64,000 bases of DNA from Sedimentisphaerales bacterium (GTDB lineage: Bacteria; Planctomycetota; Phycisphaerae; Sedimentisphaerales; UBA12454), in the NCBI GenBank assembly GCA_049518795.1, contig JBEKRK010000003.1, positions 245,097-309,096 of the forward strand, read 5' to 3'. A model generated the notes under the pieces. It ran no database searches and had not been told where the DNA came from. It worked only from the letters and a program-made list of their open reading frames with translations. Shown here one piece after another: positions 8,171-56,317 of this stretch. Each line of letters begins with the position of its first letter. Within the stretch, counting starts at the first letter, position 1. A program made the translations under genes and the position numbers.

Positions 8171-8368
8171 TTTTTCGTTCCTTTAACAATAAAATTTAAT
8201 ATTGAATTATTACACGTTAATCACATTAGAGGGCGTAATAATAATCATTTACAGTCAACTTTGCAACAATAAAAGAGGCTTGCATTGGAACAGGCAACGA
8301 ACATGGCATATCAGCGAGCTATCTTGAAAATCAATTATCAGATTTGGGATAAGAGCTAACGAAGCCAG

Positions 8369-8428
8369 TCCCGTTAGAGACACATCCTAAGGATGTCGGT
8401 CATCGCGGATGACCTGTCTCTAACGGGA
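8369..8428. mobile_element. 60-bp palindromic MITE-like element (CCCGTTAGA family) with 4-bp target duplication CCAG
   Basis: TCCCGTTAGAGACA...TGTCTCTAACGGGA perfect 14-bp inverted repeat flanked by CCAG (8365-8368, 8429-8432). Confidence 0.85.
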
Positions 8429-8680
8429 CCAGTCGTTGAGATTTTTTGCGAGAATTACAACGTCTCGTTTCTGAAGAATATGCTGCACGATAGCGGGTGG
8501 AATTTTAAACTTTGTCAAAGCAGCCTCGACCTGTTTCCATAGCTTTTCTTTTTTTGCAGGGTCCTGTTCGAGATAAATTTTGCCTACAAGCTCCTGCAAT
8601 TTCGACAGGGAGATTTTATCCAAATTCTCATAATAATCCTTTATGACCTTTTTCTGATAACCTGAAAATTCCTTGCCCAT
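8420..8680 (-). CDS. Small hypothetical protein
   Basis: 86-aa helical ORF with an AGGAAG-like RBS; the last codons and the stop lie inside the palindromic element. Confidence 0.75.
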   Translation of the reverse strand: MGKEFSGYQKKVIKDYYENLDKISLSKLQELVGKIYLEQDPAKKEKLWKQVEAALTKFKIPPAIVQHILQKRDVVILAKNLNDWSR

Positions 8681-8893
8681 AAGTCTTCCTTAATATATCG
8701 CATTGTATAGCAAGAACTTACAATATGTCAACCATCGGCTTGAGACTATAAAACCCTTTAAAACCGCATTTTATCGGACTTTAAATTTATTATGGCCATT
8801 ATCAGTATTATTATAAAGGTTTTTTCTGGATTTAGCCGACCTTACAGCTATAATTTCTTTCTTAACAGGATGTTAATTTAAAAAAAAGCAGGT

Positions 8894-11800
8894 ATGCGGC
8901 ATAATTATTTAATTTTTCTTTTGATAGTTTTTTTGACTGCTGGAAGTTTGGCGGCGTCTGGGCCGGGGCAGGGAGAATTATTTGGGGCAGAAGATTTACA
9001 TCTAAAAGGTAAAACATTAATCAGCTATCAAAATTCCGACACTGAAAATATTCTTGCTTTCACAGATGGATTTGAACTTTCAATCGGCGACAATCTCCTC
9101 AAAAGCGATAAGGCCATTGTATGGCTTGACAGTCAGACAGAGGAATACCGAGGCACTGTCAGTGTAAATTACAAAGTTAAAGTATATCTTGCGGGAAAAG
9201 TTTCAGTCGATAGAGGAGCAGGCTCGCAAACAAGCGGACTGGAAGTAAATAAAAATGTTGTCTCTGGCGTGGAGTCGATGGTTGCGAATTTTACGGTGTC
9301 CGGCGAAATTTTCGCTACCGCCGAAAACAGAACCATTGAGGATTTCCGCACAACAAAACTCTATCACGATGCCCTTGTCGCTACAGGTCAGATACAGCCG
9401 ACGCCTGTGGAGAAACCACAGACCGTCCAGAAAGAAGAACCAGTAGTTAGTCAAAACGAAGAAAAACAAGAAGTTAGTCAGAATGAGGAAAAGCAGGAAG
9501 TTATTCAAAACGCTCAAGAACCAAACGCTGTTAAAAAAGAGGGAAAAATATCTGCGGCGGGGAAAACAAAAAAGACAGCAGCGGCACAGAAAACTCAAAG
9601 ACCGGCTGCTGTTAAAGATGCTAACGAAGGTAAAAAAACCAAGCAGGGGTTTATGTCAACATTTTTTGGAGCGGGCGGTGAGCAGGCAAAACCTGTTCCG
9701 CAGGCTCCTGTGCCAAAGATTCAATATCCTTTCGGTATAAGCGGGCTCGGCACTGAACCGGTGAAAATAACGAATGAAACTTTGCCTGACGGAACAAACA
9801 TCGCGACGATACTAAGCAGGTTTTATCTCTGGCAGAAACAGAATGAGCAGGGAGTCTTATTGGAATTTCAGGCTGACAGCGCGGTTATTTTTTTCAATCG
9901 CAATTCAAGCGGCGGTTCGAGCGGTTCCGGAGGTCTTCTTGCGGGCAATAGCGTAAAGGCAGTTTATTTCCGCGGCAATATAATAATGACTGAAGGCCAG
10001 CGAACCATACGCTCCGATGAGACCTATTATGATTTTCAGAGGAGACAGGCTCTTGTTATAAACGCTGTAATGCGCAACTATGACCCCCAAAGAGGCATAC
10101 CAATATATTTGAAAGCAGCCAGGCTCAGGCAGATTGCGGAGGATAAATTCTATGCTAAGGATGTTACGCTTACCAATAGCGAGTTTTATGTTCCGCGCAT
10201 TTCAGCGACTGCATCAGAAGTTTTCGTAACGGACACAACGGCTATTGACCAGAAGACCGGCGAATTGGGCAGACAGAGTTTAGATGCCGATATGCGAAAT
10301 GTAAAACTGAAACTCGATAACAGGACGGTTTTCTGGTGGCCAAGACTCCGAGGCAATCTTGAAGGTTCCGATATCCCGATAAGGAGCATAAAAATAAGCC
10401 AAGACAAGACTTTCGGCACAGCGATTGAAACCGAATGGTATCTTGCAAAGGTTCTCGGCCTTCGCGAGTCGAAAGGCGTTGATTCGAGGCTTATGATTGA
10501 TTCTTACTCAAAACGCGGCACAGGAGTAGGCGCCGATATTACATACAAAAGGGAAACTTATTTTGGCAATATTAACGGTTATATAATTAACGATGAAGGT
10601 AAAGACGACCTCGGCAGAGCCAGGCAGGACATTCAGCCTCCCAGAACGTTAAGAGGTATGTTGAATTTCCAGCACAGACAATTTTTGCCTGAACACTGGC
10701 AGCTTACCCTGGAATCCAGTTATATTTCAGATGAATATTATCTCGAATCTTTTCATCGTGAGGAATATTTTGGCGGCAGAGGTCAGGAAACTCTTGCGCA
10801 TTTGAAATGGACCAAGGACAATGAAGGTTTTGCGATTCTCGCCAAATGGCGAATAAATAATTTTGCCGATGAGCTTGAAGAGTTTCCTTCGGCCCAGTAT
10901 CACCGGACAGGGCAGTCGCTTTTTAACGATAAATTTACGTTATACAGCGACAGCTCGCTCGGCAGGTATCGTCAGCGAATCGGCGAAAATCATACCCTGA
11001 ACGTTTCGCAGGAATATTTTACGTTTGGAACGACCCGAAACGAGCTGGATTTTCCGCTTAAATTTTCCCGCGGCAATATTGTTCCGTATATAGCCGGCAC
11101 TTACGGCTATGACGACAGATACGGTTTTGACCGGGCAGCGGCTATCGGCGAAGGCACGGGTTCGCAGGCCGGCGAGAAAAATGTTTTCATCGGCGAATTC
11201 GGCACAAGGGCATCAACTCAATTCTGGAAGATGTATAATGTTCGTTCGAGATTCTGGGATGTCAACGGCATTCGCCATATCGTAAAGCCGTATGTGAATG
11301 CGGCTGTTTTTGCTGAAAGTTCCGATGTTGTCAAGCAGAAGAATACGTATAGTTTCGGCGTTTTACAGCGATGGCAGACCAAACGCGGGGTCGGCGAAAA
11401 GAGCAGGATTCTCGACTGGATGCGGCTGAATGTGGAATATACAATGGTCAGCGACAAAAATTCACAGATAAAGAGACCTGACAAGACCGTCTGGAACAAA
11501 CCTTTTGTGCCGCTTTCAGCCACTTTAGCGCCGGCTATCTTCAACGGCGATTTAGACACTACCTTCAGAACTTTCGACCTCTTCGGTCCGCAGACAGATA
11601 GTGTAAATGCCGATTATATTTGGCGTATAAGCGACACAACAGCTATTCTGAGCGACCTCAATTATGACACGACAAACAACAAGCTTGAGCAGTTCAATAT
11701 AGGATATTCTCACCTTTGCTGGCCGAATCTGAGCTATTATTTAGGTTATCGATATTTGAGAGATATAACGGTTGATGAGAAAAAAGGTTCGAAGGCTGTT

Positions 11801-12070
11801 ACCTTTGCCATAACATATAAACTTAATCCTCGCTATACGATTTCTTACGGCTGGCAGTATGATTTCGGAATGGGCGGACTCCTCTACAACGAATTCAGTC
11901 TTATCAGACGATATCACAGACTCTATTACGCTTTAACTTATAGGGCAGACCGCACTCTTGACAACACCGCGATAGTCCTTAGTATATGGCCGGAAGGAGT
12001 CCGTGAACTGTCTTTAGGCTCAAGAAGATATATGGGTCTGGATTCGCCTGAACACCGCAGCGGTTACTAA
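8894..12070 (+). CDS. lptD: LPS-assembly protein LptD-like outer-membrane protein (large form)
   Basis: Signal peptide; OstA-like VYFRGNIIMTEGQRTIRSDETYYDF; beta-barrel region with DSYSKRGTGVG, SYISDEYYLE, GIRHIVKPY, GVLQRWQTKRG. Confidence 0.7.
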   Translation: MRHNYLIFLLIVFLTAGSLAASGPGQGELFGAEDLHLKGKTLISYQNSDTENILAFTDGFELSIGDNLLKSDKAIVWLDSQTEEYRGTVSVNYKVKVYLAGKVSVDRGAGSQTSGLEVNKNVVSGVESMVANFTVSGEIFATAENRTIEDFRTTKLYHDALVATGQIQPTPVEKPQTVQKEEPVVSQNEEKQEVSQNEEKQEVIQNAQEPNAVKKEGKISAAGKTKKTAAAQKTQRPAAVKDANEGKKTKQGFMSTFFGAGGEQAKPVPQAPVPKIQYPFGISGLGTEPVKITNETLPDGTNIATILSRFYLWQKQNEQGVLLEFQADSAVIFFNRNSSGGSSGSGGLLAGNSVKAVYFRGNIIMTEGQRTIRSDETYYDFQRRQALVINAVMRNYDPQRGIPIYLKAARLRQIAEDKFYAKDVTLTNSEFYVPRISATASEVFVTDTTAIDQKTGELGRQSLDADMRNVKLKLDNRTVFWWPRLRGNLEGSDIPIRSIKISQDKTFGTAIETEWYLAKVLGLRESKGVDSRLMIDSYSKRGTGVGADITYKRETYFGNINGYIINDEGKDDLGRARQDIQPPRTLRGMLNFQHRQFLPEHWQLTLESSYISDEYYLESFHREEYFGGRGQETLAHLKWTKDNEGFAILAKWRINNFADELEEFPSAQYHRTGQSLFNDKFTLYSDSSLGRYRQRIGENHTLNVSQEYFTFGTTRNELDFPLKFSRGNIVPYIAGTYGYDDRYGFDRAAAIGEGTGSQAGEKNVFIGEFGTRASTQFWKMYNVRSRFWDVNGIRHIVKPYVNAAVFAESSDVVKQKNTYSFGVLQRWQTKRGVGEKSRILDWMRLNVEYTMVSDKNSQIKRPDKTVWNKPFVPLSATLAPAIFNGDLDTTFRTFDLFGPQTDSVNADYIWRISDTTAILSDLNYDTTNNKLEQFNIGYSHLCWPNLSYYLGYRYLRDITVDEKKGSKAVTFAITYKLNPRYTISYGWQYDFGMGGLLYNEFSLIRRYHRLYYALTYRADRTLDNTAIVLSIWPEGVRELSLGSRRYMGLDSPEHRSGY
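9446..9520 (+). repeat. 27-bp in-frame tandem repeat (VSQNEEKQE x2 plus a partial copy)
   Basis: gttagtcaaaacgaagaaaaacaagaa / gttagtcagaatgaggaaaagcaggaa / gttattcaaaacgctcaagaa. Confidence 0.75.
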
Positions 12071-12163
12071 AAATCGAAGCGGGAAAATCTCGACAATCCG
12101 GGACGGCTACTTAACTATACGTAAATGCAGAGTTTATCTATATTTATGGAAGGAATGTAAAAG

Positions 12164-13114
12164 ATGGCATTAGTTGATACGAAAAAAATGTTCAAAATGG
12201 CCTATAAAAACGGCTATGCAATCGGGGCTTTCAATGTCAACAATATGGAGATTACACAGGGCATTATCAGCGCTGTCGCTGAAAAAAAGGCACCGCTGAT
12301 TTTTCAGATTTCCAGAGGGGCCAGAAAATATGCATCAATGAGCTATCTGAGGGCAATTATTGACGTTACAGTTGCAGAAAATCCTGATATTCCAATCTGT
12401 ATGCATCTCGACCACGGCGATACGTTTGAAATCTGCAAACAATGTGTCGATGACGGCTTTACTTCCGTAATGATTGACGCATCGCATCATCCTTTCGAGG
12501 AGAATATCAAGATAACAAAACAGGTTGTTGAATATGCTCACGCACGAAACGTTGTCGTTGAGGCAGAACTTGGTCAGCTTGGCGGCATTGAAGAGGATGT
12601 CAAGGGCATTAGTCATGACGATGTTGCAAGTCATCTTACAGACCCCGACCAGGCTATTGAGTTTGTTCAGAAAAGCGGCTGCGATTCCCTTGTCGTTGCC
12701 TGCGGAACAAGCCACGGCGCTTACAAGTTCAAGTCCGAACCCAAGATAGCTTTCGACGTAATACAAAAGGTTGCAGACAAATTGCCGGGATTTCCTCTTG
12801 TAATGCACGGCTCAAGCAGCGTTCTGAAGGAATTTAAAGACCTCATTAATAAATACGGCGGCAAAATGCCAGATGCTATGGGAGTTCCGGAGTCAGCCAT
12901 ATCGAAGGCTGCGAAAATGGCAGTCTGCAAAGTCAATATCGATACCGACCTTCGTATGGCAATGACGGCGAAAATACGGCAGGTATTTGCCGAAAAGCCC
13001 GGCGAGTTTGACCCGCGAAATTATCTCGGCCCGGCACGAGACGCTATCAAGGCGATGGTTTCCCATAAGCTGGATGTTCTGGGCTGCAGCGGCAAAGCGA
13101 AAGAGTGTCTGTAA
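12164..13114 (+). CDS. fba: Class II fructose-1,6-bisphosphate aldolase
   Basis: GAFNVNNME, HLDHG, SVMIDAS, VEAELG, GTSHGAYK, VMHGSSS, KVNIDTD. Confidence 0.95.
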   Translation: MALVDTKKMFKMAYKNGYAIGAFNVNNMEITQGIISAVAEKKAPLIFQISRGARKYASMSYLRAIIDVTVAENPDIPICMHLDHGDTFEICKQCVDDGFTSVMIDASHHPFEENIKITKQVVEYAHARNVVVEAELGQLGGIEEDVKGISHDDVASHLTDPDQAIEFVQKSGCDSLVVACGTSHGAYKFKSEPKIAFDVIQKVADKLPGFPLVMHGSSSVLKEFKDLINKYGGKMPDAMGVPESAISKAAKMAVCKVNIDTDLRMAMTAKIRQVFAEKPGEFDPRNYLGPARDAIKAMVSHKLDVLGCSGKAKECL

Positions 13115-13239
13115 AAAATTTAAAATTGAAAATTTAAGATTGAAGATTTATTTAGCGGCGGGGGCTAAATGTAACAATTCTCCAATCCGTAATTTTCAAT
13201 CTTTTTTTGTCCTGATTTAGATTAAAAAGAAAGCAGTAA

Positions 13240-15456
13240 ATGAAGAAAAACATAATAGTTTTTTTTGTATTATTATCTATTATAGTCCCTGTTCCTGCTG
13301 CCGTGGCGATGTTGAAGCCTGCGAAGGTTTTGCAGACACAGACAGAATCATCTGTGCAGCCGACGGACAGCAACACATCTGAGCTGATAAAATCAGCCGT
13401 GCAGGAAATCTGCGACGGCAATTTCATTGTTGCCGGGCAGATATTAAGCAAAACAGACGCAAATAATCCAAATATTTCCGCACTTTCCAGCGTAATCTCG
13501 CAATATAAGAAAATTGAAAGTGTAAAACAACAATCGCAAAAAAAGTCTTTTGATGAGCAGTTTGCCGAACTCGAAAAATTCAAGGCTGCTGCCGATAAAA
13601 ATGAGCCTAACCTGCTGGAAGTATTTCCTGCGATTATCAAGGCTGATGAATTAGCGACTGATGAGCAGAAAAAACAGATTCTGTCCGATAAATTTGTTCA
13701 GAAGACCATCGAAAGAGCACGGAAAACGGCCGGCGAATTCGAATCAAAAGGCAACTGGCTTAATTCGCTTATTTATTGTTACAGCTGGCTTTCGGCTCTT
13801 TACGAAGAAGATAAGACAATACAGGATAAAAAAAAGGGACTGGAGGAAAAGCTGCTGATAGAGGCTTCATTAGCGGACAATTCCTGCGAAGCGTGTTCCG
13901 ACCGCTTTCAGAAGGTAAAACCCCAGATGTTCACCCGCAGCCTTGATGTTCTTGAATACGGGTATGTTGAACCTTTTTACTACAGCGATATGGCTGATAA
14001 GGTATTTGACCGCTGCCGCAATCTTGCGGATGTTCTGCAGTTTAGCGACAGCAACAAAAGCCCTGTTACAGTTTCAGCCGATTCTCCGCAGGAAATTCTG
14101 CCGGACTCTGCCGGCGGCAAAGTTACGATAACCTTTTTAAAAGACAAATTGCCTGAGTTTGCTGCAGGACTTGATTCATTAAGGAAAAAATACAGTTCAG
14201 AACCTACCGGCATGAATAAAGACCAGTTCACCAAATTGTTCGAAGAAGTTCAGGCTTTGAATTTGTCAACGATAAATCTGCCTGAGCAGATAATAGTCTG
14301 GCATTTTTCCGAGGCGGCATTATCCGCGCTCGACCCGCATACTATGATTGTTTGGCCGAAAGAGAAAGAGGATTTTGAGAAAAGTATGACCAATGAATTT
14401 TCCGGCATCGGCGTAGAAATCTCAAAAGCAGACGGCTTGCTGCGGGCGGCAAGTCTATTGCCCGACACTCCCGCGTATTATTCAGGTATGGATGCCGGAG
14501 ATATAATAGAGGCAATCAACGGCGAAAGCACAAGAGATATGCCGATTACCTGCGCGGTAAGCAAAATCACAGGCCCTGCGGGCACAAAGGTTGTGCTTAC
14601 AGTTCGCAGTTCGACTGAAGAAAAAGTGCGAACAATAGAAATTACGAGGGCGAAAATCGTTGTCCCTACCATTCGCGGCTGGCGCAGAAATGATTCGGGC
14701 GATTGGCAGTATTTTGTCGATGAAAAAGAAAAAATCGGCTATGTCCGCGCTACGAATTTTTCCGCATCCACATCTGCCGACCTCAATAGAGTTCTGAATA
14801 TTCTTGAATCGACTGGGATGAGGGCGTTAATCCTTGATTTGAGGTTTAATACGGGCGGTTTTCTCAAAAGCGCCGTGGAAATAGCCGATATGTTTATAGA
14901 AAACGGCGTCATTGTCAGCACTCAGCCGAGAATCGGCCCTCAAAGCTGGGAGGTTGCGCATAAAAAAGGGACTCATCCGAATTATCCTATTGTGATACTT
15001 ATTAACGGCGGTTCTGCAAGCGCCTCTGAGATTGTCGCAGGCGCGCTTGCGGACAATACTTACCGCCGGGCAACTCTTGTGGGTCAGCAAAGCTACGGCA
15101 AAGGCAGCGTTCAAACGATAAGCGACTATCCAGGCGACGGAGCGGAAATAAAATTCACGATGGCTTATTATCATCTGCCCGACGGCAGAAAAGTCAGCGA
15201 CCGCGCATCAGCAGAGAAAAAAGGCAGAAAAGACTGGGGAATAATCCCCAATGTTAAAGTCGAGATGTCTAATGAAGAACTCAAAAAACTGATTGACGTT
15301 GAAAAAGACAATGACGTGCTTGTCGCAGCGAACCGCAATAAGAGCAGGTCAAAATTGAAAAAACATAATTTGGCCGAGACACTGCAGGCAGACCCTCAGC
15401 TTGCCGTTGCGGTTCTTGTATCAAAAGCAAAATTGATTGAGGCAGGGCTTCAATAA
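13240..15456 (+). CDS. S41 family C-terminal processing protease (PDZ plus S41)
   Basis: LDPHT, FSGIGVEI (PDZ), LILDLRFNTGG, SASASEIVAGAL, SYGKGSVQ, DPQL; signal peptide. Confidence 0.92.
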   Translation: MKKNIIVFFVLLSIIVPVPAAVAMLKPAKVLQTQTESSVQPTDSNTSELIKSAVQEICDGNFIVAGQILSKTDANNPNISALSSVISQYKKIESVKQQSQKKSFDEQFAELEKFKAAADKNEPNLLEVFPAIIKADELATDEQKKQILSDKFVQKTIERARKTAGEFESKGNWLNSLIYCYSWLSALYEEDKTIQDKKKGLEEKLLIEASLADNSCEACSDRFQKVKPQMFTRSLDVLEYGYVEPFYYSDMADKVFDRCRNLADVLQFSDSNKSPVTVSADSPQEILPDSAGGKVTITFLKDKLPEFAAGLDSLRKKYSSEPTGMNKDQFTKLFEEVQALNLSTINLPEQIIVWHFSEAALSALDPHTMIVWPKEKEDFEKSMTNEFSGIGVEISKADGLLRAASLLPDTPAYYSGMDAGDIIEAINGESTRDMPITCAVSKITGPAGTKVVLTVRSSTEEKVRTIEITRAKIVVPTIRGWRRNDSGDWQYFVDEKEKIGYVRATNFSASTSADLNRVLNILESTGMRALILDLRFNTGGFLKSAVEIADMFIENGVIVSTQPRIGPQSWEVAHKKGTHPNYPIVILINGGSASASEIVAGALADNTYRRATLVGQQSYGKGSVQTISDYPGDGAEIKFTMAYYHLPDGRKVSDRASAEKKGRKDWGIIPNVKVEMSNEELKKLIDVEKDNDVLVAANRNKSRSKLKKHNLAETLQADPQLAVAVLVSKAKLIEAGLQ

Positions 15457-16913
15457 TGAGCGAACCACAGGATGCAAATAAACTTGAACAGCAAAGAAGA
15501 GAAAAACTTGAGCGAATAAAACAGCTCGGAATCGACCCTTACGGCCAGCGAATAGATAATGTCGAATCGACACAATCGGTCAGAATAAAATTCGATGAAA
15601 AAAAAGAGGGACAAAAGGCAGCCTGCGCGGGCAGAATAGTTCTTCTTCGCGATATAGGCAAATTGATATTTATGACTCTGCGCGACAGCAGCGGAACAAT
15701 TCAGCTCGGCCTGAGCAAAAAGCTGCTGGAGCAGCAATGGGAGCTGATAAAACTTTTTGACCTCGGCGATATAATTTGTGCCGAAGGGCAGCTTGGCCTG
15801 ACAAAAACAGGCGAGCTTACAATATGGGTCGAGAAAGTAACGATACTTTCGAAATCGCTTTTGCAGCCGCCGGAGAAGTTTCACGGCCTTGCCGATGTTG
15901 ACCTTCGCTATCGCAGGCGATATGTCGATATGTGGGCAAACCCCGATTGTTTGGAGAAATTCAAAAAACGAATTGCAATAATATCGACGATTCGCGCCTT
16001 TCTGCAGGAAAGGGGATTTTGCGAAGTTGAGACCCCGATGATGCAGGCGATACCCGGCGGGGCGGCGGCAAAACCGTTTATCACGCATCACAACGCACTC
16101 GATATAGATTTATATTTGCGGATTGCGCCGGAATTGTTTTTGAAAAGACTGCTCGTAGGCGGAATGGAAAAGGTTTTTGAGATAAACCGCAATTTCCGCA
16201 ACGAAGGTTTAAGCCCCCGGCATAATCCTGAATTTACAATGATGGAAATTTATCAGGCTTACGCGGATTATAATATAATGATGGAGCTAACCGAGGAGCT
16301 TGTCAGCTTGCTTGTTGAAAAACATTGCGGCGGGGTAAAATTGCAGTATGGCGATAAACAGATAGATTACAGCCGGCCGTGGAAAAAGGCTTCTTACGGC
16401 GAGTTGCTCAAAGAATACGGCGGATGCGAAATTGGCGATATCCAATCGATTCGCAAAAAAGCCAAATCGCTTGGTGTGGAAGAAGCTCAAAAAGCAGATG
16501 AGATTGTTATAAATGAGCTTTTTGAATTAACTGTGGAAAAAAATCTCATTAATCCGACTTTTGTAATCGATTATCCTGCGGCACTGTGTCCGCTGACAAA
16601 ACGAAGCAAGGCTAATCCTGAATATGCCGAGAGGTTCGAGCTTTATATAGGCACGATGGAAATAGCAAACGCTTATACCGAGCTGAACGACCCGCAGGTG
16701 CAGTATGAAAACTTCGTATCGCAGCTTAAAGGCGAGAATGAAGGTGAGGACACATTCAGAAGTCTTGATGAAGATTTTATAACTGCGCTCAAATACGGTA
16801 TGCCGCCTGCAGGCGGATTGGGTATCGGTATTGACAGGCTTATAATGCTGCTTACGAACGCAGCGAGTATAAGGGATGTGATTTTGTTCCCACTTTTAAA
16901 GCCAGAAAAATAA
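15456..16913 (+). CDS. lysS: Lysine--tRNA ligase (class II)
   Basis: PPEKFHGL, EVETPMM, YLRIAPELFLKRL, FRNEG..HNPEFTMME, YGMPPAGGLGIGIDRL. Confidence 0.97.
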   Translation: MSEPQDANKLEQQRREKLERIKQLGIDPYGQRIDNVESTQSVRIKFDEKKEGQKAACAGRIVLLRDIGKLIFMTLRDSSGTIQLGLSKKLLEQQWELIKLFDLGDIICAEGQLGLTKTGELTIWVEKVTILSKSLLQPPEKFHGLADVDLRYRRRYVDMWANPDCLEKFKKRIAIISTIRAFLQERGFCEVETPMMQAIPGGAAAKPFITHHNALDIDLYLRIAPELFLKRLLVGGMEKVFEINRNFRNEGLSPRHNPEFTMMEIYQAYADYNIMMELTEELVSLLVEKHCGGVKLQYGDKQIDYSRPWKKASYGELLKEYGGCEIGDIQSIRKKAKSLGVEEAQKADEIVINELFELTVEKNLINPTFVIDYPAALCPLTKRSKANPEYAERFELYIGTMEIANAYTELNDPQVQYENFVSQLKGENEGEDTFRSLDEDFITALKYGMPPAGGLGIGIDRLIMLLTNAASIRDVILFPLLKPEK

Positions 16914-16960
16914 ATAAGATTGAAAATTGAACGTTCAATGTTCTTAAAGGAAAACGATAA

Positions 16961-18289
16961 ATGCTGAAGTTTTTCCTTGCACTTCGATACTTAAAAAAGA
17001 AAAAAATTGTCTTTCTCAGTATCGTCGCCGTTGCCCTGTCGACTGCGCTATTGGTTACTGTCGCAAGTCTGTTTACGGCATTTATCAAGGCGGTCGAATC
17101 CAGCTCGGCCGATTATCTTGGCGATATAGTTCTTGACCCGCCGCAGGAAATTTACCACAGCGATGAGCTTGCTGACAGACTTAGCAGCGAAAAGGAAATT
17201 GCCGCTGCAAGCGCAGTCCTCTCAACTAACGGCCTTATCCATTTCGGACCCGGCAATGTAAAAGCCGTAAGTATCTGGGGCATAGATTTGCCGAGCCGAT
17301 GTAAAGTTACGGATATGAAAAACAATCTCATTAAGCAAGGAGACAATCCTTCAGTTCCGCAATTCGATAATGAAGATAAAACAGTAATACCTGTATTTGT
17401 CGGCATCGGTCTGCTTGCTGAGCCGGACGACAAAACCGATGAATACGACTTGGCTTATGTTAAAAGTTTTATCGGCGATGATGCCGTTGTAACAGTCGGA
17501 AGTGCCCAGGGAAAATCGCAGGCCAATGAACTACGAAGCCGATCGGCAAAAGTAAGAATCAGTGATGTCGTTCGCACTTCAGTTTATGATATAGATAAAA
17601 GATTTATCTTTATGCCGATAGACAGATTGGCGGAAATTTTAAACAAACAGAATCCAAAGCCGGCTGATATTATTCATATAAAATGCGCAGCAGGTTACAA
17701 TCCGGAGCAGACTGTTTCCGTTGTTCGCAGGATTTGGACGGAATTTGCCGGGCAAAGACTTAACTGGCCGACGTATTTTGCCGCTGATGCAGAGATTATG
17801 ACTTCAGTTGCCAGGCAGAGCCAATATACCGCTGAGCTTCGCAAACAGATGGGTGTGCTGCTGGTGATATTCGGAGTTATAAGTGCAGGCGTGATTGTGC
17901 TTGTTTTTTGTATTTTCTATATGATAGTTGCCGGCAAACTTAAGGACCTTGCGATAATCAAATCCGTCGGCGGCTCAGCATTTACCTCGGCTTCAATCTT
18001 TCTGATTTTCGGTCTTTTCACAGGCCTGCTCGGCGCATCGATAGGTATTGGTATTGGATATGCGATTACGCATTATGTGAACGCAATGGAACGATGGATT
18101 AGTCTTTTCTTCGGCCTTAAACTATGGAGCAGCAGTATTTATATGTTCAGCCGGATACCGAATAATTTTAACTGGTTCTGGGCCTGGCGGTTTTTCGGAG
18201 CGGCTGTTGCAGCTTCTGTGCTTGGTGCGCTGCTGCCGGCGATTGCTGCTGCTAGAACTTTTCCGGCAAAAATATTAAGATACGAATAG
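16961..18289 (+). CDS. Lipoprotein-releasing ABC transporter permease (LolC/E family)
   Basis: FLALRYL N-terminus, one N-terminal and three C-terminal TM helices, DLAIIKSVG, PAKILRYE end. Confidence 0.85.
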   Translation: MLKFFLALRYLKKKKIVFLSIVAVALSTALLVTVASLFTAFIKAVESSSADYLGDIVLDPPQEIYHSDELADRLSSEKEIAAASAVLSTNGLIHFGPGNVKAVSIWGIDLPSRCKVTDMKNNLIKQGDNPSVPQFDNEDKTVIPVFVGIGLLAEPDDKTDEYDLAYVKSFIGDDAVVTVGSAQGKSQANELRSRSAKVRISDVVRTSVYDIDKRFIFMPIDRLAEILNKQNPKPADIIHIKCAAGYNPEQTVSVVRRIWTEFAGQRLNWPTYFAADAEIMTSVARQSQYTAELRKQMGVLLVIFGVISAGVIVLVFCIFYMIVAGKLKDLAIIKSVGGSAFTSASIFLIFGLFTGLLGASIGIGIGYAITHYVNAMERWISLFFGLKLWSSSIYMFSRIPNNFNWFWAWRFFGAAVAASVLGALLPAIAAARTFPAKILRYE

Positions 18290-18290
18290 A

Positions 18291-19643
18291 ATGTTCGATA
18301 TAATTTTACCAATTAGATTTTTTCTGCGTCGCAGGATAACAATTCTTGCCGTTCTTGCCGTTGCGCTGTGTGTTTTTACTGTTGTAGTTGTAATGACGGT
18401 GATGAACGGCCTTGTAACCGATTTTACGAATATGAACCACACATTTTTTTCCGATTGCATTATTTCAACCGAATCGCTTGTCGGGTTTGGCCTTTATGAT
18501 GAGTTTATGGCTCGTCTTGAAAAGACCGGTTTTGTCGAATCTGTTGCGCCGGTGATAAATACATTCGGTCTTGTTGAGTCGCAATCGTCGGGCAAAAATG
18601 CCGCGCTCGATTTAATGGGCATAGATATAGACCGGCAAATTAAAACGACGAATTTTGCTGATTCTCTTTATTATCGAAAAAATGCGCCGCGGCTTGCCTT
18701 TGTGCCTTTGTATGATGCCAATCTGCCCGGCTGCGTTCTTGGAGTCGATTTACTTGTCGAAAGGCAAAAGTCCGGACAATACAGACAATTGAATTTTTTG
18801 CCGGCGTGGTCTTATCTTGTTACCTGTTTTCCTCTGACGCCAAAGGGTGCTCTTTCAAAAACCGGCACTGGGCTTTCCGCGAATTCAAAAAGATTTTTCT
18901 ACAGCGATAACAGCAATTCCGGCCTTGCAAAAATCGACAGCACCGTTGTTTATCTTCCGTATAATTTGCTGCAAACTCTTTGCGGAATGGATGCAGGCGC
19001 AAAAAGAACGAGCTCAATCTTGATAAAATTTAAAAATGGCTGCGACATCGGCCTTTGCACGGAAAAAGTATCTCTTCTCTGGCAGGATTTTGTAAAAGAA
19101 AAAAGCAATTTTGCTTATGCCGGATTGTTTAATACGGTTCGCGTTCAGGACTGGAAGACTTATCGAAGAGGAACTATCGCCCCAATGGAAAAGGAGCAAA
19201 CAATGCTGATTTTACTATTTGCGCTTGTGGGTCTAATTACGGTCTTTATTATTTTCGTGATTTTCTATATGATTATAAACCGCAAGAGCAAGGACATAGG
19301 CATTCTCAAGAGTCTTGGCGTCTCAAAATTCGGCGTCCTACGAGTTTTTATGAGACTGGCTTTGCTGATTGGCCTTATTGGCGCGGCAGTCGGAATTTTA
19401 TTTGCACTTGTTTTTCTTGCGAATATAAACAGGCTTGAAGGCTGGCTTTTTGACAAATTTGGTTTTCAGATGTGGAACAGGGAAATTTACGCGATAGGCG
19501 AGATACCGCACAAGATTGTGCCGCTTTTACTGGCGGCTGTTGCAGCCTGTGCTGTTGCGGCCTGTCTGCTGGGCGCTCTTTTGCCGACGCTCAAAATTTC
19601 AGGCCAAAAATGTGTTGATGTTCTTCGGGTGAACCAGTTATGA
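18291..19643 (+). CDS. Lipoprotein-releasing ABC transporter permease (LolC/E family), second paralog
   Basis: VVVMTVMNG, KDIGILKSLG, FtsX-type topology. Confidence 0.85.
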   Translation: MFDIILPIRFFLRRRITILAVLAVALCVFTVVVVMTVMNGLVTDFTNMNHTFFSDCIISTESLVGFGLYDEFMARLEKTGFVESVAPVINTFGLVESQSSGKNAALDLMGIDIDRQIKTTNFADSLYYRKNAPRLAFVPLYDANLPGCVLGVDLLVERQKSGQYRQLNFLPAWSYLVTCFPLTPKGALSKTGTGLSANSKRFFYSDNSNSGLAKIDSTVVYLPYNLLQTLCGMDAGAKRTSSILIKFKNGCDIGLCTEKVSLLWQDFVKEKSNFAYAGLFNTVRVQDWKTYRRGTIAPMEKEQTMLILLFALVGLITVFIIFVIFYMIINRKSKDIGILKSLGVSKFGVLRVFMRLALLIGLIGAAVGILFALVFLANINRLEGWLFDKFGFQMWNREIYAIGEIPHKIVPLLLAAVAACAVAACLLGALLPTLKISGQKCVDVLRVNQL

Positions 19644-20344
19644 CGGACAAAAATAATTGCATATTAAGCTGTAACGATATTTGTAAATCCTATCAGATGG
19701 GAGCGATTCGGCTTGACGTCCTCAAAGGCGTAAGTCTGTCGGTTAATCGCGGCGAATTTGTCGCCGTCAGGGGCGCTTCAGGCAGCGGCAAAAGCACGCT
19801 TTTGCATATCCTCGGCGCTCTCGATACGCCCGATAAAGGCGATGTTTTTTTCGAGGGTCAGGGACTTGCCGGTTTTTCAGGCAGGAAAATCAATGAATTC
19901 AGGAATAAAAAAATTGGGTTTGTATTTCAGTTTTATCATTTACTTGACGAATTAACAGTGTTGGAAAATGTCCTGCTGGCGAAGATGGCTGGCACATCAG
20001 CAATAAGCTGGCTTTTCGGCTCTGATTCGGCCAAAAAACGTGCCCGCCGGCTTCTCGACGAGATGGGATTATCGGAAAGGGTTCGGCACAGGCCTTTTCA
20101 GCTTTCCGGCGGCGAACGGCAGAGAGTTGCTATCGCAAGGGCGCTGATGAATGAGCCTCAAATCGTTCTTGCCGATGAGCCGACAGGAAACCTTGACTCT
20201 GAAACTGGAAATGGTATCCTGAAGGTCTTTGAAAAGCTGCACAGTCAGGGCCAAACGGTTGTAATGGTTACGCACGATGAGCGGATTGCCGCCAAAGCCC
20301 AGCGGGTGATAAAGCTTGCCGATGGCAGAGTATCGGCAGGTTAA
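19640..20344 (+). CDS. lolD: Lipoprotein-releasing ABC transporter ATPase
   Basis: GASGSGKST, IGFVFQFYHLL, LSGGERQRVAIARAL, LADEPTGNLD; follows two LolC/E permeases. Confidence 0.88.
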   Translation: MTDKNNCILSCNDICKSYQMGAIRLDVLKGVSLSVNRGEFVAVRGASGSGKSTLLHILGALDTPDKGDVFFEGQGLAGFSGRKINEFRNKKIGFVFQFYHLLDELTVLENVLLAKMAGTSAISWLFGSDSAKKRARRLLDEMGLSERVRHRPFQLSGGERQRVAIARALMNEPQIVLADEPTGNLDSETGNGILKVFEKLHSQGQTVVMVTHDERIAAKAQRVIKLADGRVSAG

Positions 20345-20361
20345 AAATATCGGAGTTTTTT

Positions 20362-21228
20362 ATGGCGTTGAAAATATGGCTTAACGGTTCTCTTGTTGAC
20401 GAATCGAACGCTAAGATAAGCGTTTTCGACCACGGTCTGCTCTATGGCGACGGCGTCTTTGAGGGCATTCGTGTTTACAGTTCGAAGATTTTCGAGCTTG
20501 ATGCGCATCTGAATAGGCTTTATGAATCGGCAAAAGTCCTGAGGCTGAATATCGGTATGACGCCGCAGGAGCTTGGCGATGTTACTGTCGAGACCGTTAA
20601 GGCGAACAATGTTGTTAATGGATATATTCGTCTTGTCGTTACCCGCGGCATCGGTTCGCTGGGCATCAATCCGTTTACCTGTGAAAAGCCGCAGGTTTTT
20701 ATCATTGCAGATAGTATTCAGTTATATCCTGCGGAACTTTGCGAAGCGGGTATCAGGGTTATCAGCGCCTGCACGATTCGCAATCATCCGCTTGCGATAC
20801 CGCCGCAGGTAAAAAGCCTTAATTATCTCAACAACATACTGGCTAAAATCGAGGCTCTCGATGCCGGCGTGCCTGAAGCGATTATGTTCAATCACGAAGG
20901 TTTCGTTGCCGAAGCTACCGGCGATAATGTCTTCATCATAAAGAACGCCGTTTGCTATGCTCCTCCGATACAGGCAGGTTCGCTTGAGGGTGTTACCAGG
21001 GCTGTTGTTATGCGTCTTGCAAAACGTGAAGGAATCGAAACTGTCGAAAAGAACCTGACACGCTTTGACCTTTACGTTGCCGATGAATTATTCCTTACCG
21101 GCACGGCTGCTGAGGTTGTCGGTGTTGTTGAAATTGACGGCAGACCGATTTCCGGCGGCAAACCCGGAAAGATTACGCAGCTTCTGCGCAAAAAATTCTT
21201 CGATTATGCTCATGGCCGCTCAAAATAA
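20362..21228 (+). CDS. ilvE: Branched-chain amino acid aminotransferase
   Basis: DHGLLYGDGVFEG, YIRLVVTRG, KSLNYLNN, EATGDNVF, LEGVTR, ADELFLTGTAAE. Confidence 0.95.
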   Translation: MALKIWLNGSLVDESNAKISVFDHGLLYGDGVFEGIRVYSSKIFELDAHLNRLYESAKVLRLNIGMTPQELGDVTVETVKANNVVNGYIRLVVTRGIGSLGINPFTCEKPQVFIIADSIQLYPAELCEAGIRVISACTIRNHPLAIPPQVKSLNYLNNILAKIEALDAGVPEAIMFNHEGFVAEATGDNVFIIKNAVCYAPPIQAGSLEGVTRAVVMRLAKREGIETVEKNLTRFDLYVADELFLTGTAAEVVGVVEIDGRPISGGKPGKITQLLRKKFFDYAHGRSK

Positions 21229-21229
21229 A

Positions 21230-22231
21230 ATGGCCATACAAAATTTATTGCCGGTTCGCCCGCGTCTTATAGCAGATGAGCTTGTTAAGGTGAACGATTT
21301 TTTTAATTCGCAGCTCGATTGTTCTGATGACAGGCTTGCGCCTTTTATGGATTATCTCAAAGAACGGCAGGGCAAGATGCTCCGCGCTTCCTTTGTCCTT
21401 CTTGCTGGCAAATTGTTCAGCCCTGCTGCTGAACTTCATATCAAAATCGCCGGCATAGTTGAGATGATACACGCCGCGACGCTTCTGCACGATGATGTAA
21501 TTGATAATGCCGCGCATCGCAGGCATCTGGCCACAGCAAATAATCTGTGGGGCAGTAATTTAGCAGTCTTGATGGGTGATTATCTTTTAAGCAGGACTTT
21601 TGTGGCGGTCGCGTCTCTGCAAAGAGACGATATCAATCGGCTGCTTACTGAAACTGCCGTGAAAGTCTGCCGCGGCGAAATGCTCCAGAACGCCTGTCGT
21701 GGTGATTTCAGCATTGGTATCGAAGAGTATCTCGACATAATTGAAAAAAAGACCGCGATTTTTTTTGCCAATTGCTGCAAACTTGGCGCAATGGCGTCTA
21801 ATGCCGATGAGCAATCCGCAGAACGTTTATATAAATTCGGCCTTAATTTCGGTATGTCTTTTCAGATTATTGATGACCTTGTTGATATTCTCATCGCCGA
21901 AAGCCAAACAGGCAAAACCGCCGGCACAGACCGTTTGACCGGCACGCTGACGCTGCCGGTTATTCACGCCTTCGGCGTTCTTGATTCTAAAGCAAAAAGC
22001 GAACTTCTCGATGCGTTTGACAATGAGCAGGCGGACATAAATCATATCATATCAATTCTGCACAAATCAAAGAGCATTGACTATGCGAAATCCCGCGCAC
22101 AGGAGTATCTTGCGAAAACTATTTCGATTCTTGATTATTTCGGCTGTCACCCCGCCGCTCAGGAATTGAAAAATCTGGTTTTTTCCGTAACAAATCAGAC
22201 GGAGCCGCTAAAACACGAAGGCGCGAAGTAA
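21230..22231 (+). CDS. Polyprenyl diphosphate synthase
   Basis: GKMLR, EMIHAATLLHDDVID, GDYL, KKTA, FQIIDDLVD; start placed just after the ilvE stop. Confidence 0.92.
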   Translation: MAIQNLLPVRPRLIADELVKVNDFFNSQLDCSDDRLAPFMDYLKERQGKMLRASFVLLAGKLFSPAAELHIKIAGIVEMIHAATLLHDDVIDNAAHRRHLATANNLWGSNLAVLMGDYLLSRTFVAVASLQRDDINRLLTETAVKVCRGEMLQNACRGDFSIGIEEYLDIIEKKTAIFFANCCKLGAMASNADEQSAERLYKFGLNFGMSFQIIDDLVDILIAESQTGKTAGTDRLTGTLTLPVIHAFGVLDSKAKSELLDAFDNEQADINHIISILHKSKSIDYAKSRAQEYLAKTISILDYFGCHPAAQELKNLVFSVTNQTEPLKHEGAK

Positions 22232-22280
22232 TACTGGATATTAAATTTTGAGTAATTATAATGCTTTGTGTCGAAGTTTA

Positions 22281-22313
22281 CCCCGTGAGATGTCCTTGAC
22301 TATCTCATCGGGG
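22281..22313. repeat. Palindromic element CCCCGTGAGAT...ATCTCATCGGGG inserted within an 8-mer repeat arm
   Basis: Same ends as 892-935; sits between ctttgtgtc and tgcctttgtggcta. Confidence 0.75.
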
Positions 22314-22355
22314 TGCCTTTGTGGCTAATTGTTTTTTTGGAGATACAAAAATGAA

Positions 22356-22450
22356 TCCCGTTAGACCTTGTTGGCTTTATATCCCATTTAGCATACTAAA
22401 AATAGGAAATTTTAACCGTTTTTACGCCTATGAAAGGAGGTCTAATGGGA
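22356..22450. mobile_element. 95-bp CCCGTTAGA-family element inserted at the DUF4139 start codon, target duplication TGAA
   Basis: a-TGAA-[TCCCGTTAGACCT...AGGTCTAATGGGA]-TGAA; net 99 nt, in frame. Confidence 0.8.
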
Positions 22451-23913
22451 TGAAAACGAAATTCTTTAATTTAATTCTGGCGATTCTTTTTATTTGTCCC
22501 TGTCTTTTGGCGGCCAAAGAGCCTGCGCAGGAAGGCAATTCCGTAGCGGTAACCGTTTATAACAACAATTTTGGCGTAGTTAAGGAGCGTCGTCCCATAT
22601 CTTTTGACAAAGGCCTCAACACGATAAAATTTACCGATGTTGCATCGGCGATAGAGCCGGCCAGCGTGAGTTTTCAATGCCTCAGCGCTCCGGGCAAAAT
22701 TTCTATCCTCGAACAGAATTATGAATATGACCTTGTAAACACATTCAGTCTCCTTAATCGTTATATCGACAAGGCCGTCAATATCTCAATCAAAGGCAGC
22801 GGAGCCGACAAAGGAAAAGAAATTGACGGCGTTCTTATGGCTTCAAGAGACAATAATCTTATCCTTAAAAACGACAATGGACAGTTGGAAATAATCAGCG
22901 AGGGTAGCGTTGAAAATATTTCACTGGCGCAGCTTCCTGAGGGGTTGGTTACCAGGCCGACGCTTGTCTGGCTTGCTCAATCCGAAACAGCCGGCAAAGA
23001 AAACTGTCAGGTTACATATACCACTTCTGATATTAGCTGGAACGCGGACTATTCAGCGATTCTGAACGCCGCTGAGAACGCCCTCGATATCAGCGGCTGG
23101 GTAACAATCGACAATAAAAGCGGCGCAGCTTACAAAGACGCAAAAATTAAACTTATCGCAGGCGATGTCAGACGAGTTGAGGCACCCCGGCCGATGAGAG
23201 TAATGGCCGGCTTAAAATATGATATGGCTGCCGAGGCCCTGGCTTTTGAGGAAAAGGCTTTTATGGAGTATCACATTTATACATTGCAGCGCAGCAGCAC
23301 TATAAATAATAACGAGGTTAAGCAGATTGAGTTTATAACTCCCGCTCAAAACGTTCCCGCAAAAAAGATATATCTTTATGAGCGGAGTAAAAACGACAAA
23401 AAAGTTCAGGTGAAATTCGAGTTTGAGAACAAAAAGGAAAACGGCCTTGGCATTGCTCTGCCAAAAGGCAAAGTTCGGGTCTTTAAGAAAGATACTGATG
23501 GGATGCTCGCCCCGTTAGAGACAGCCCCTAAGGGGCGTCGAGGCGTCTCAGATGCCTTGTCTCTAACGGGGCTTGAATTTGTCGGCGAGGATTTAATCGA
23601 CCATACGCCTAAGGATGAAAAATTATCGCTTTATATAGGCGATGCATTCGATATCGCAGTTGAGCACAAACTTGTTGACAGTAAGGTTGCCGAGCGTTAT
23701 CGCTGGGAGAAGCACTCGATTGAGATGCGAAACCGCAAGGATTCGCCGGTTACTGTTTTCGTCGATGAAAAATTTCCCCCCTGGGTCAACTGGAAAATCG
23801 ATGAATCGAACAAGCCTTATGTAAAGAAGGATGCGAATACCGCTCGCTTTACAGTTGATATTGCCGCCGATGCCAATGCGACTGTAGAATATTCCGCAAC
23901 GCAGAAATGGTAA
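22450..23913 (+). CDS. DUF4139/DUF4140 domain secreted protein
   Basis: Signal peptide MKTKFF..LLA; VAVTVYNNNFGVVKERR, EQNYEYDL, LVTRPTLVW, ISWNADY, GWVTIDN, LPKGKVRVF, FVGEDLIDHTPKDE; alternative upstream start at 22351. Confidence 0.85.
   Translation: MKTKFFNLILAILFICPCLLAAKEPAQEGNSVAVTVYNNNFGVVKERRPISFDKGLNTIKFTDVASAIEPASVSFQCLSAPGKISILEQNYEYDLVNTFSLLNRYIDKAVNISIKGSGADKGKEIDGVLMASRDNNLILKNDNGQLEIISEGSVENISLAQLPEGLVTRPTLVWLAQSETAGKENCQVTYTTSDISWNADYSAILNAAENALDISGWVTIDNKSGAAYKDAKIKLIAGDVRRVEAPRPMRVMAGLKYDMAAEALAFEEKAFMEYHIYTLQRSSTINNNEVKQIEFITPAQNVPAKKIYLYERSKNDKKVQVKFEFENKKENGLGIALPKGKVRVFKKDTDGMLAPLETAPKGRRGVSDALSLTGLEFVGEDLIDHTPKDEKLSLYIGDAFDIAVEHKLVDSKVAERYRWEKHSIEMRNRKDSPVTVFVDEKFPPWVNWKIDESNKPYVKKDANTARFTVDIAADANATVEYSATQKW
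23510..23571. mobile_element. 62-bp CCCGTTAGA-family element inserted in frame in the DUF4139 gene
   Basis: CCCCGTTAGAGACA...TGTCTCTAACGGGG flanked by CTCG/CTTG; adds 22 codons. Confidence 0.85.

Positions 23914-54767: not shown

Positions 54768-56317
<1,550 letters not shown>

Follow-up and report, generated by a model that had tools for sequence, protein, structure and literature searches.

The window, a 64,000-nucleotide stretch from the genome of a Sedimentisphaerales bacterium, holds three short palindromic inserts. The coordinates, ends and 4-bp duplications given for them in the original prediction were all recovered as described. Element 1 occupies positions 8369-8428, with a 58-bp core (8370-8427, CCCGTTAGA..TCTAACGGG), an outer T/A pair at 8369/8428 and a CCAG duplication (left 8365-8368, right 8429-8432). 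A 14-bp terminal stem, counting the outer T/A pair, and two internal hairpins are predicted to make a three-way junction, with a DNA fold of -24.1 kcal/mol (z -7.7). The element overlaps a minus-strand ORF of 86 amino acids without a Pfam family (8420-8680), to which it supplies the final two codons and the stop (S-R-TAG, in the CC-CGT-TAG frame). The rebuilt empty site, ...GACTGG|CTTCGTTAG, agrees with the C-terminus DWLR* of the G004 orthologue, and the site is empty in all five same-genus orthologues.

Element 2 (22356-22450, plus strand; core 22357-22449, right end TCTAATGGG, outer T/A pair at 22356/22450) lies between TGAA copies at 22352-22355 and 22451-22454. The original start codon of its host gene, followed by AA (ATGAA), is at 22351-22355 on the plus strand, with the host Shine-Dalgarno sequence GGAG upstream. 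The last base of the element, an A at 22450, rebuilds the host ATG together with the next TG, 9 nt after an AGGAGG carried by the element. From this regenerated codon the host gene (22450-23913, plus strand) encodes a DUF4139 protein of 487 amino acids (PF13598, E = 9.9e-9), the N-terminus of which resembles a signal peptide. The orthologues of genomes G001 and G004 read ...ggaggtacaaaa|ATGAAAACGAAATT with no insert, and element 2 is also missing from the other same-genus orthologues. Element 3 (23510-23571; 60-bp core 23511-23570, outer C/G pair at 23510/23571) is a short three-way-junction copy with a predicted fold z of -8.3. It is flanked by CTCG (23506-23509) and CTTG (23572-23575), a duplication with one change, and forms a 22-residue in-frame insert (APLETAPKGRRGVSDALSLTGL region) within the DUF4139 gene. 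Empty sites of the form ATG-CTCG-AA-TTT occur in G001, G003 and G004; G002 has a 63-bp copy at this site with an exact CTCG duplication, and the remaining relatives have none. Assembled contigs give a weak hint of the same kind. In run X4, from a related population, one contig lacks the 99 nt between 22350 and 22450, and individual contigs of other samples lack the stretch from about 23498-23500 to 23571-23575, all at a likeness below 95%. Both patterns fit, weakly, empty sites in related populations.

The net gains from elements 1, 2 and 3 are 64, 99 and 66 nt. As had been proposed, all three leave intact ORFs: the gains of 99 and 66 nt are in frame, with one ORF (22321-23913) reading through both elements, and the TAG of element 1 ends the 86-residue ORF. 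The accompanying idea that the inserts add peptides to proteins survives for element 3 only. Element 1 instead swaps the last two codons of its host (LR* becomes SR*), and element 2 is better described as an internally deleted nuclease gene placed exactly on a start codon.

The whole genome contains 36 such elements. An exact 4-bp duplication flanks 31 of them and a duplication with one mismatch another 4, compared with 0 of 36 in two offset controls. The outer bases are complementary in 36 of 36, giving a terminal repeat of 10 invariant nucleotides plus a variable complementary outer pair. We also considered a 5-bp duplication. In 22 of the 36 cases the last base of the element is identical with the one preceding the left copy, but CCAG and others do not fit, and the agreement arises because of ATG start codons; hence, the duplication is read as 4 bp, next to the variable outer pair. 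Exact half-sites are paired in 73 of 80 cases genome-wide. In the window alone, a scan allowing one mismatch gave 13 matches for 9.4 expected, which is not significant; the paired arrangement is. The reversed pattern, used as a control, had no match in any of the 41 genomes searched. The arms GTTAGAC/GTCTAAC recall the GTTRRRY core of integron attC sites. We rejected this assignment, since the order of the half-sites is reversed and the copies, rather than forming cassette arrays, are scattered.

Insertion, duplications and empty sites establish that the window inserts are real mobile DNA. The same segments could have been ancient sequence kept in relatives, or the duplications not enriched across the genome; the orthologues lack the segments, and the duplications are enriched genome-wide. 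The inserts behave as a non-autonomous mobile element with inverted ends that enters or abuts genes without destroying them, as the original prediction had it. Its description of the element as active went too far: the copies have diverged, and the evidence is one of presence and absence among same-genus genomes, not of current movement. Strong predicted folds, covariation and the Shine-Dalgarno-like tract of element 2 might suggest that the palindromes are immobile, i.e. conserved native regulatory hairpins acting as RNA or DNA. We regard this as extremely improbable. Same-genus orthologues lack the element and have the 4-bp target in single copy, elements are found in both orientations, whether within coding sequence, at gene starts or in intergenic DNA, and a scan of the window at Rfam gathering thresholds matched the 16S rRNA alone, with no family for the palindromes.

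The original prediction saw no mobilising gene in the window and none is there, but a candidate exists elsewhere. At G000:C1:105312-105577 lies a full-length family member, a 266-bp core with a single ORF for a 91-residue stand-alone GIY-YIG nuclease. Its inverted repeats are codons 3-6 (P-V-R-P) and the last codons (G-L-T-G) of this ORF, and it brings neither a start nor a stop codon with it. When it is inserted at A|TGAA, it takes its ATG from the left duplicate and its TGA from the right one, and its final base, joined to TG, re-creates the host start codon downstream of the element's own GGAGG. The protein consists of one domain, which matches the Pfam GIY-YIG family (PF01541) over residues 9-75 (E = 2.7e-13, 50.4 bits for a cut-off of 22.6). 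Its AlphaFold model (pLDDT 84.6; strand-strand-helix-strand-helix-helix) is predicted to adopt the GIY-YIG nuclease fold: the best PDB matches are 1zg2 (UPF0213 protein BH0048) and then Slx1 (TM about 0.6 on the query), followed more weakly by the UvrC and I-TevI domains. BH0048 is also the closest PDB protein in sequence (E = 1.5e-6), and the protein is likely of the UPF0213/Ssn-like kind of stand-alone GIY-YIG nucleases. The conserved motif residues of GIY-YIG enzymes are two tyrosines, an arginine, a histidine and a glutamate. In 15 full-length copies, Y10, Y12, Y23, R33, H37 and E69 never vary and E57 hardly does. Among full-length copies dN/dS ranges from 0.04 to 0.17 wherever dS could be estimated, which indicates that they are under purifying selection.

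The full-length element also accounts for one of the classes of shorter copies. Twenty copies have CCCGTTAGAC-type ends, and 19 measure 92-104 bp. They align to about 80 nt of its 5' end and about 22 nt of its 3' end with one common gap, and this alignment shows that the ~95-bp class derives from the GIY-YIG element. Element 2 is such a derivative: the 5'-terminal 80 nt or so (P-V-R-P-C-W-L-Y...) and the 3'-terminal 22 nt or so, with the AGGAGG, are retained, and about 170 bp in between are missing. The family shows the features by which MITEs are recognised, namely terminal inverted repeats, a 4-bp duplication, presence or absence at orthologous sites and, for the ~95-bp class, a longer coding parent. 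A separate class with CCCGTTAGAAAT ends, also of about 95 bp and likewise at start codons, seems composite, with an internal half-site. The short copies of this genome are diverged, and full-length copies number one.

The nuclease element usually lands on gene start codons. In this genome, 18 of 29 long copies are at ATGAA, and 14 of these 18 sites are start-like, compared with 8.3% of all 9055 ATGAA sites (p = 1.5e-12). Part of this excess may reflect selection rather than targeting, insertions elsewhere in genes being lost. The 21 host ORFs are diverse: 20 have Pfam domains, which are largely different and in many cases start at residues 1-13 (L13, AcrB, SurE, NIF3). The layout recurs in other genomes. 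Among 80 loci encoding relatives of the nuclease, 29 have GTTAGA-type repeats; 20 of these 29 show exact duplications (TGAA in 16), and in 22 a regenerated ATG or GTG opens an adjoining host ORF with 100 residues or more. Their hosts fall in 19 unrelated protein clusters. Records with this layout come from Planctomycetota, Omnitrophota, Nitrospirota, Saccharibacteria (CPR) and others. Sister clades of the nuclease have repeat families of their own: CCCTGTGAAATAA in Bacteroidota, CCCGGTGCTACAACTTCGA in CPR, and CCCTCACACCAATGG and CCCGCACCTTCT in this lineage.

Such placement could also be produced by a free-standing homing endonuclease that cuts gene starts at ATGAA and is copied by break repair, the duplication being a by-product and the short copies immobile decay. 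GIY-YIG homing endonucleases exist, the protein has a weak match to TIGR01453 (E = 8.7e-4, under the cut-off), and at four loci (L057, L061, L063 and L064) the same host gene is occupied in different genomes. We nevertheless find homing improbable. It needs homologous flanks, and the hosts here and elsewhere are mostly unrelated; repeats and duplications are present, unlike in a homing gene with a single cognate site; and the short copies have one architecture and one deletion in common.

The minimal class (57-63 bp), to which elements 1 and 3 belong, consists of the repeats and two small hairpins, and has just the ends in common with the 266-bp element. Short copies are also found away from ATGAA, at many sites that have separate duplications (CCAG, CTCG, TTTA and others), which implies that they moved as short units. 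The duplication is exact in 28 of 42 short copies, and TGAA/TTCA makes up 10 of these 28, for a background of 1.2%, a target preference in copies with no need to code. For the short class, 90.6% of cells in the predicted structure are paired, compared with 34-41% when the structure is slid, and 16 pairs show double changes, a value reached in none of 500 shuffles. The short-copy sample, 33 loci, was hand-picked among the first matches listed and copies have ancestry in common, so p-values overstate the support. The core length plus 6 is mostly divisible by three and, of the three reading frames, two are open. As a consequence, short copies persist inside coding sequence.

Another enzyme might move these copies. 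The elements would then be true transposon derivatives mobilised by a Y1/RAYT-type or unrecognised transposase, and the GIY-YIG ORF a passenger or selfish add-on. There are two Y1_Tnp (PF01797) genes in the genome, a 52-bp palindrome with GTTAGA/TCTAAC arms lies ~1 kb upstream of one of them, and GIY-YIG enzymes are not known as transposases. IS200/IS605-type movement leaves no target duplication, and most elements here have one. Y1_Tnp occurs in 39 of 41 relatives, the 18 without any element among them, and does not covary with the family. The repeats are the terminal codons of the nuclease itself and accompany it across phyla. The genome has no longer element bounded by these ends: when a classical insertion sequence was sought, as end pairs 400-8000 bp apart with a duplication, only two short copies next to each other and a spurious pair came up. 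Taken together, we judge movement by another enzyme unlikely. A RAYT as the specific partner was rejected, as Y1_Tnp loci are without flanking CCCGTTAGA pairs and independent of element count. Several relatives rich in elements (G003, 23; G005, 19; G009, 11; G014, 18; G017, 15; G022, 16) have no close full-length copy at E <= 1e-12, in genome assemblies that are incomplete.

We favour, at a probability of roughly two in three, the reading that the window inserts are non-autonomous copies of a tiny GIY-YIG element with repeats N-CCCGTTAGA...TCTAACGGG-N' and a 4-bp duplication. The full-length element would prefer the target A|TGAA. Its nuclease would be translated from the host ribosome site and the left ATG-AA(T), and would stop at the right TGA. 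The last codons, AAA-GGA-GGT, would act as a Shine-Dalgarno sequence 9 nt upstream of the rebuilt host start, to which the last base of the element (A or G) would contribute with the following TG in an ATGA overlap. Internal deletion yielded the ~95-bp class. As to movement itself, we infer that the candidate nuclease would recognise the stem folded from the repeats, probably as single-stranded DNA, and cut both there and at ATGAA, host repair finishing the move. To our knowledge, no GIY-YIG enzyme performs transposition. GIY-YIG enzymes hydrolyse DNA with no covalent intermediate, hence joining would need host functions. Whether all this amounts to an unrecognised class of prokaryotic transposons, ~270 bp long, with a GIY-YIG Ssn-like structure-specific nuclease as sole protein and start, stop and ribosome site borrowed from the host, is in our estimation evenly balanced. 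The smallest known autonomous insertion sequences measure ~700 bp.

Several known systems share some of these traits. MITEs, such as the Correia elements of Neisseria, are likewise short and non-coding, with inverted ends, a target duplication and a longer coding parent, and sometimes give expression signals to neighbour genes. They differ from the present copies, whose ~270-bp parent codes for a GIY-YIG nuclease instead of a DDE transposase, and whose start-codon target provides bases reused as start and stop of the element's gene. Rickettsia palindromic elements, the precedent named in the original prediction, also last in frame inside coding genes, a likeness of behaviour only. The present elements have a defined 4-bp duplication, a fixed 10-nt terminal repeat and a candidate parent gene, and we found no papers joining Rickettsia palindromic elements with GIY-YIG. 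In REP/BIME sequences and their RAYTs, a small nuclease-like protein whose gene lies between copies probably recognises the small palindromes once they are folded as single strands; that enzyme (IS200/IS605 Y1) has another fold, duplications are present here, and Y1_Tnp does not follow our family. Slx1, whose nuclease domain resembles the 91-residue model, cuts branched DNA; it differs in its additional domains and its partner, Slx4, and serves in repair, outside any mobile element.

The closest known system is the pair formed by Ssn nucleases and their SRM (NTS) hairpin repeats. Ssn are GIY-YIG nucleases that are described as cutting single-stranded DNA beside flanking hairpin repeats (Chenal et al., Nat Commun 2025, PMC11893778). 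Both systems have a single-domain GIY-YIG protein of ~90-100 residues (about 94 in Ssn, 91 here), inverted repeats at both ends of the gene with many further genomic copies, and repeat stems of the type ..TCCC....GGGA.... In the Ssn system the bracketing repeats form hairpins. In the element described here, which has 36 copies, the repeats are the first and last codons of the ORF, and neither makes a hairpin by itself: the two are the arms of a single long-range pairing within the ORF. Duplications, empty sites, internal deletions, in-frame copies and start-codon capture are documented here, whereas in the main text of that paper the words "duplication", "start codon" and "MITE" do not occur. 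Its authors likened the Ssn layout to an insertion sequence and asked whether the repeats are of that nature (PMC11893778). In Neisseria, the role published for Ssn is control of transformation, not movement. Within the openly accessible literature covered, we found no GIY-YIG elements with target duplications or start-codon insertion, and to that extent the duplications, empty sites and start-codon capture appear new.

If the nuclease moves the element, the GIY-YIG fold would join the short list of enzyme folds driving transposition in bacteria, and the element would set a new lower size limit for self-sufficient mobile elements. Codon borrowing would let a selfish gene be expressed although it brings no signals with it, and the host gene would stay intact, which explains its residence before housekeeping genes such as that of ribosomal protein L13. 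The element also suggests, for the hairpin repeats found alongside Ssn-type nucleases, a concrete origin that can be tested; were the elements a transposon class of their own, such repeats elsewhere would be products of like movement. The minimal derivatives would insert peptides of 21-23 residues into proteins, and the short copies are a natural source of in-frame peptides. A small site- and structure-specific nuclease with an ATGAA-adjacent target could become a candidate tool. Finally, gene callers misplace starts at such sites: in the window, the longest ORF begins at 22321, and the native ATG is at 22351/22450.

Inspection of the window sequence confirmed the predicted coordinates of the three palindromic inserts (element 1, 8369-8428; element 2, 22356-22450; element 3, 23510-23571). 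They share the core CCCGTTAGA...TCTAA(C/T)GGG, enclosed by one further complementary base pair (T/A in elements 1 and 2, C/G in element 3) and then by 4-bp direct repeats (CCAG/CCAG, TGAA/TGAA and CTCG/CTTG, respectively), with net gains of 64, 99 and 66 nt. ORF calls agreed with the original prediction: a TAG within element 1 ends a minus-strand ORF of 86 aa (8420-8680), and elements 2 and 3 are both read through by the ORF 22321-23913, which encodes a DUF4139 protein. An Rfam scan gave no match at the three elements.

The elements are insertions whose duplications have a fixed length. The claim that they are not ancient conserved sequence stood up in the orthologues of related genomes. Element 1 is absent from all five same-genus orthologues, and its removal in silico changes the ORF end from DWSR* to DWLR*, as in G004. 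Element 2 is absent from all same-genus orthologues compared; its empty site in G001 and G004 has ggaggtacaaaa directly followed by ATGAAAACGAAATT. The empty site of element 3 reads ...ATG-CTCG-AA-TTT... in orthologues of G001, G003, G004 and other genera (CTTGAA in some), and most relatives' proteins align as residues 1-353 and 374/375-487, skipping the insert. The closest relative, G002, has a 63-bp copy at this site with an exact CTCG duplication. In the G001 orthologue of the 86-aa ORF (L174, contig C14), a different palindrome of about 110 bp, CCCCGTGAGATAA...TATCTCACGGGG, is inserted behind the same Trp codon as element 1; it again yields a P-V-R-stop end, and is thus an independent hit on this spot.

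The window corresponds to C3:245097-309096 of the source genome (G000; 2.9 Mb, 8 contigs, 43.5% G+C). This genome has 80 exact half-sites, 73 of them paired, giving 36 elements of 57-266 bp. The 4-bp duplication is exact in 31 and has one mismatch in 4 more, against 0/36 in each of two offset controls, so that the predicted genome-wide enrichment was observed. The outer pair is complementary in 36/36 (T/A 30, C/G 4, A/T 2). Of 41 related genomes, G000 counted, 23 contain the pattern, with as many as 60 copies in one genome; among other genomes of the same family as G000 it is present in 19/24. The reversed pattern has no match in any of the 41. Some elements are tandem or nested (G000 C1:309444-309650 and C4:140701-144868; loci L044, L033, L035 and L036) because every insertion recreates ATGAA on both sides.

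Most long copies, when oriented by the adjoining ORF, have the arrangement ATGAA-T-element-A-TGAA. The full-length copy (C1:105312-105577, 266 bp) is open from the left ATG, giving a protein of 91 aa (MNPVRP...RGLTG), and is closed by the right duplicate's TGA, which overlaps the ATG of a 215-aa ORF. On the upstream side, the left ATG is overlapped by the rbfA stop codon. Since the nuclease ORF runs from one duplicate to the other, the element itself lacks start and stop codons, which are both supplied by the target A|TGAA. The layout thus reuses host codons. Its last base (A or G) with TG rebuilds the host start, and its last codons provide GGAGG 9 nt upstream. Pfam identifies the protein as a GIY-YIG domain (E 2.7e-13, above cut-off), with UPF0213 BH0048 as the closest solved sequence; a structure model (pLDDT 84.6) matches 1zg2 best and then Slx1. 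The Pfam domain does not cover the residues encoded by the repeats, where the model's confidence is lowest.

We aligned 20 copies above 85 bp with ends CCCGTTAGAC or CCCATTAGAC, including the full-length copy. The 19 short members (92-104 bp) match its first ~80 and last ~22 nt, with one common gap of ~170 nt. By this alignment they are deletion derivatives, which probably spread in already deleted form, and the long class descends from the nuclease gene.

Long copies are concentrated at start codons. We called a site start-like if, in the rebuilt empty site, the reading frame stayed open for at least 100 codons downstream and met a stop no more than 25 codons upstream. Among the 29 G000 elements above 85 bp, 18 are at ATGAA and 14 of these are start-like, against 8.3% of all 9055 ATGAA sites (binomial p 1.5e-12). 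With ATGCG and ATGGA sites the count is 16/29; four more long copies, with upstream open stretches of 26-71 codons, may also lie at starts. None of the seven shorter copies is start-like. The ORFs that follow 21 of the long copies are genuine genes, and 20 of them contain Pfam domains, frequently starting at residue 1-13. They include ribosomal protein L13, AcrB, SurE, NIF3, CDP-alcohol phosphatidyltransferase, ABC and RND parts, radical SAM proteins and peptidases.

G001, G002, G006, G013, G018 and G024 also carry full-length copies (73-91% identity), some in tandem with short copies; in G001 (C5) one is flanked by two. A scan of species-representative genomes gave 80 loci, 57 with flanking inverted repeats, of which 29 are of the GTTAGA type. 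These 29 have exact duplications in 20 cases (16 TGAA) and complementary outer bases in 28; at 22 a host ORF of at least 100 aa, from 19 unrelated clusters, adjoins the rebuilt ATG or GTG. When the outer pair is C/G, this start is GTG, not ATG. The loci come from records titled Planctomycetota (Sedimentisphaerales, Phycisphaerae), Omnitrophota, Nitrospirota, Saccharibacteria, Paceibacterota and others. Selection acts on the gene: across ten 91-codon copies, dN/dS is 0.04-0.17 wherever dS was estimable.

Elements 1 and 3 belong to a minimal class. We sampled 42 copies of at most 80 bp, 8 in G000 itself and a further 34 at 33 loci picked by hand among the first matches listed in G002, G009, G013, G014 and G016. 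Duplications are exact in 28, outer bases complementary in 39 and lengths divisible by three in 35. Fourteen copies lie within an ORF that stays open for at least 40 codons in both directions; their frame is CCC-GTT-AGA (12) or C-CCG-TTA-GAG (2), never the one with TAG. TGAA/TTCA makes up 10/28 exact duplications against a background of 1.2%, so the ATGAA preference is inherent in insertion and does not come only from selection to express the nuclease. A three-way junction (14-bp terminal stem, two 7-bp hairpins) fits twenty-two 63-nt copies: 90.6% of cells are paired, against 34-41% in slid alignments, and 16 pairs changed on both sides, a number that none of 500 shuffles reached. Elements 1 and 3 fold in this way on either strand (z -6.9 to -8.3).

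Which enzyme moves the elements? Ssn GIY-YIG nucleases bind their flanking repeats, which form hairpins, and cleave single-stranded DNA next to these (PMC11893778), and we infer that mobilisation is the work of the element's own nuclease. Its codons include the repeats, which have stayed with it across phyla, and sister clades carry repeats of their own. A search of G000 gave no other candidate gene with these ends, and Y1 transposases occur throughout the order without tracking the elements. Against this, GIY-YIG enzymes are known only to hydrolyse, G000 has a single full-length copy, and several relatives have elements without a close one. The duplication might, most simply, come from staggered nicks at ATGAA followed by host ligation and fill-in. 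In the Ssn paper, dispersed hairpin repeats are associated with small GIY-YIG genes, in a layout that its authors liken to an insertion sequence; the terms 'duplication', 'start codon' and 'MITE' do not occur in its main text (PMC11893778). Outside subscription journals we found no other relevant publication, and we give about even odds that the element represents a new class of transposon.

Other clades of the protein have the same layout with different inverted repeats (G000 C1:227542-227784; loci L050, L053 and L054). These include CCCGCACCTTCT...AGAAGGTGCGGG, then ATGA, and CCCTCACACCAATGG...CCATTGGTGTGAGGG, where the nuclease TGA overlaps the ATG of host ORFs (367 and 255 aa). Small GIY-YIG genes at G000 C2:722063-722275 and C1:375805-376029 adjoin sequences with tRNA 3'-like ends; the former is flanked on both sides by an identical ~40-nt stretch (ggttcgaatcccc...ctatttgat), as if inserted into a tRNA gene with its 3' end duplicated. 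A second palindromic family, with arms CCCCG(A)TGAGAT...ATCTCA(T)CGGGG, is in many cases linked to CCCAGTTAGATAGCTAA...GCATCTAACGGGG units. It has a small copy directly upstream of element 2 (22281-22315), where contig depth in sequencing run X1 is ~10x the surroundings, and others at C1:68414, C1:572386, C2:793, C2:95128, C3:131645, C4:197488 and elsewhere. Another GIY-YIG clade (L041, L047) ends in ...CCCCGATGAGATAG, so this family may be its repeat. The window also has an intergenic inverted block of TTAGGG-like units (26178-26274; TTAGGATTTAGGGTTTAGTGCTTAGG ... CCTATACCCTAAACCCTAA, ~52 nt apart) and, by the Rfam scan, a complete bacterial 16S rRNA gene on the minus strand (54772-56317).
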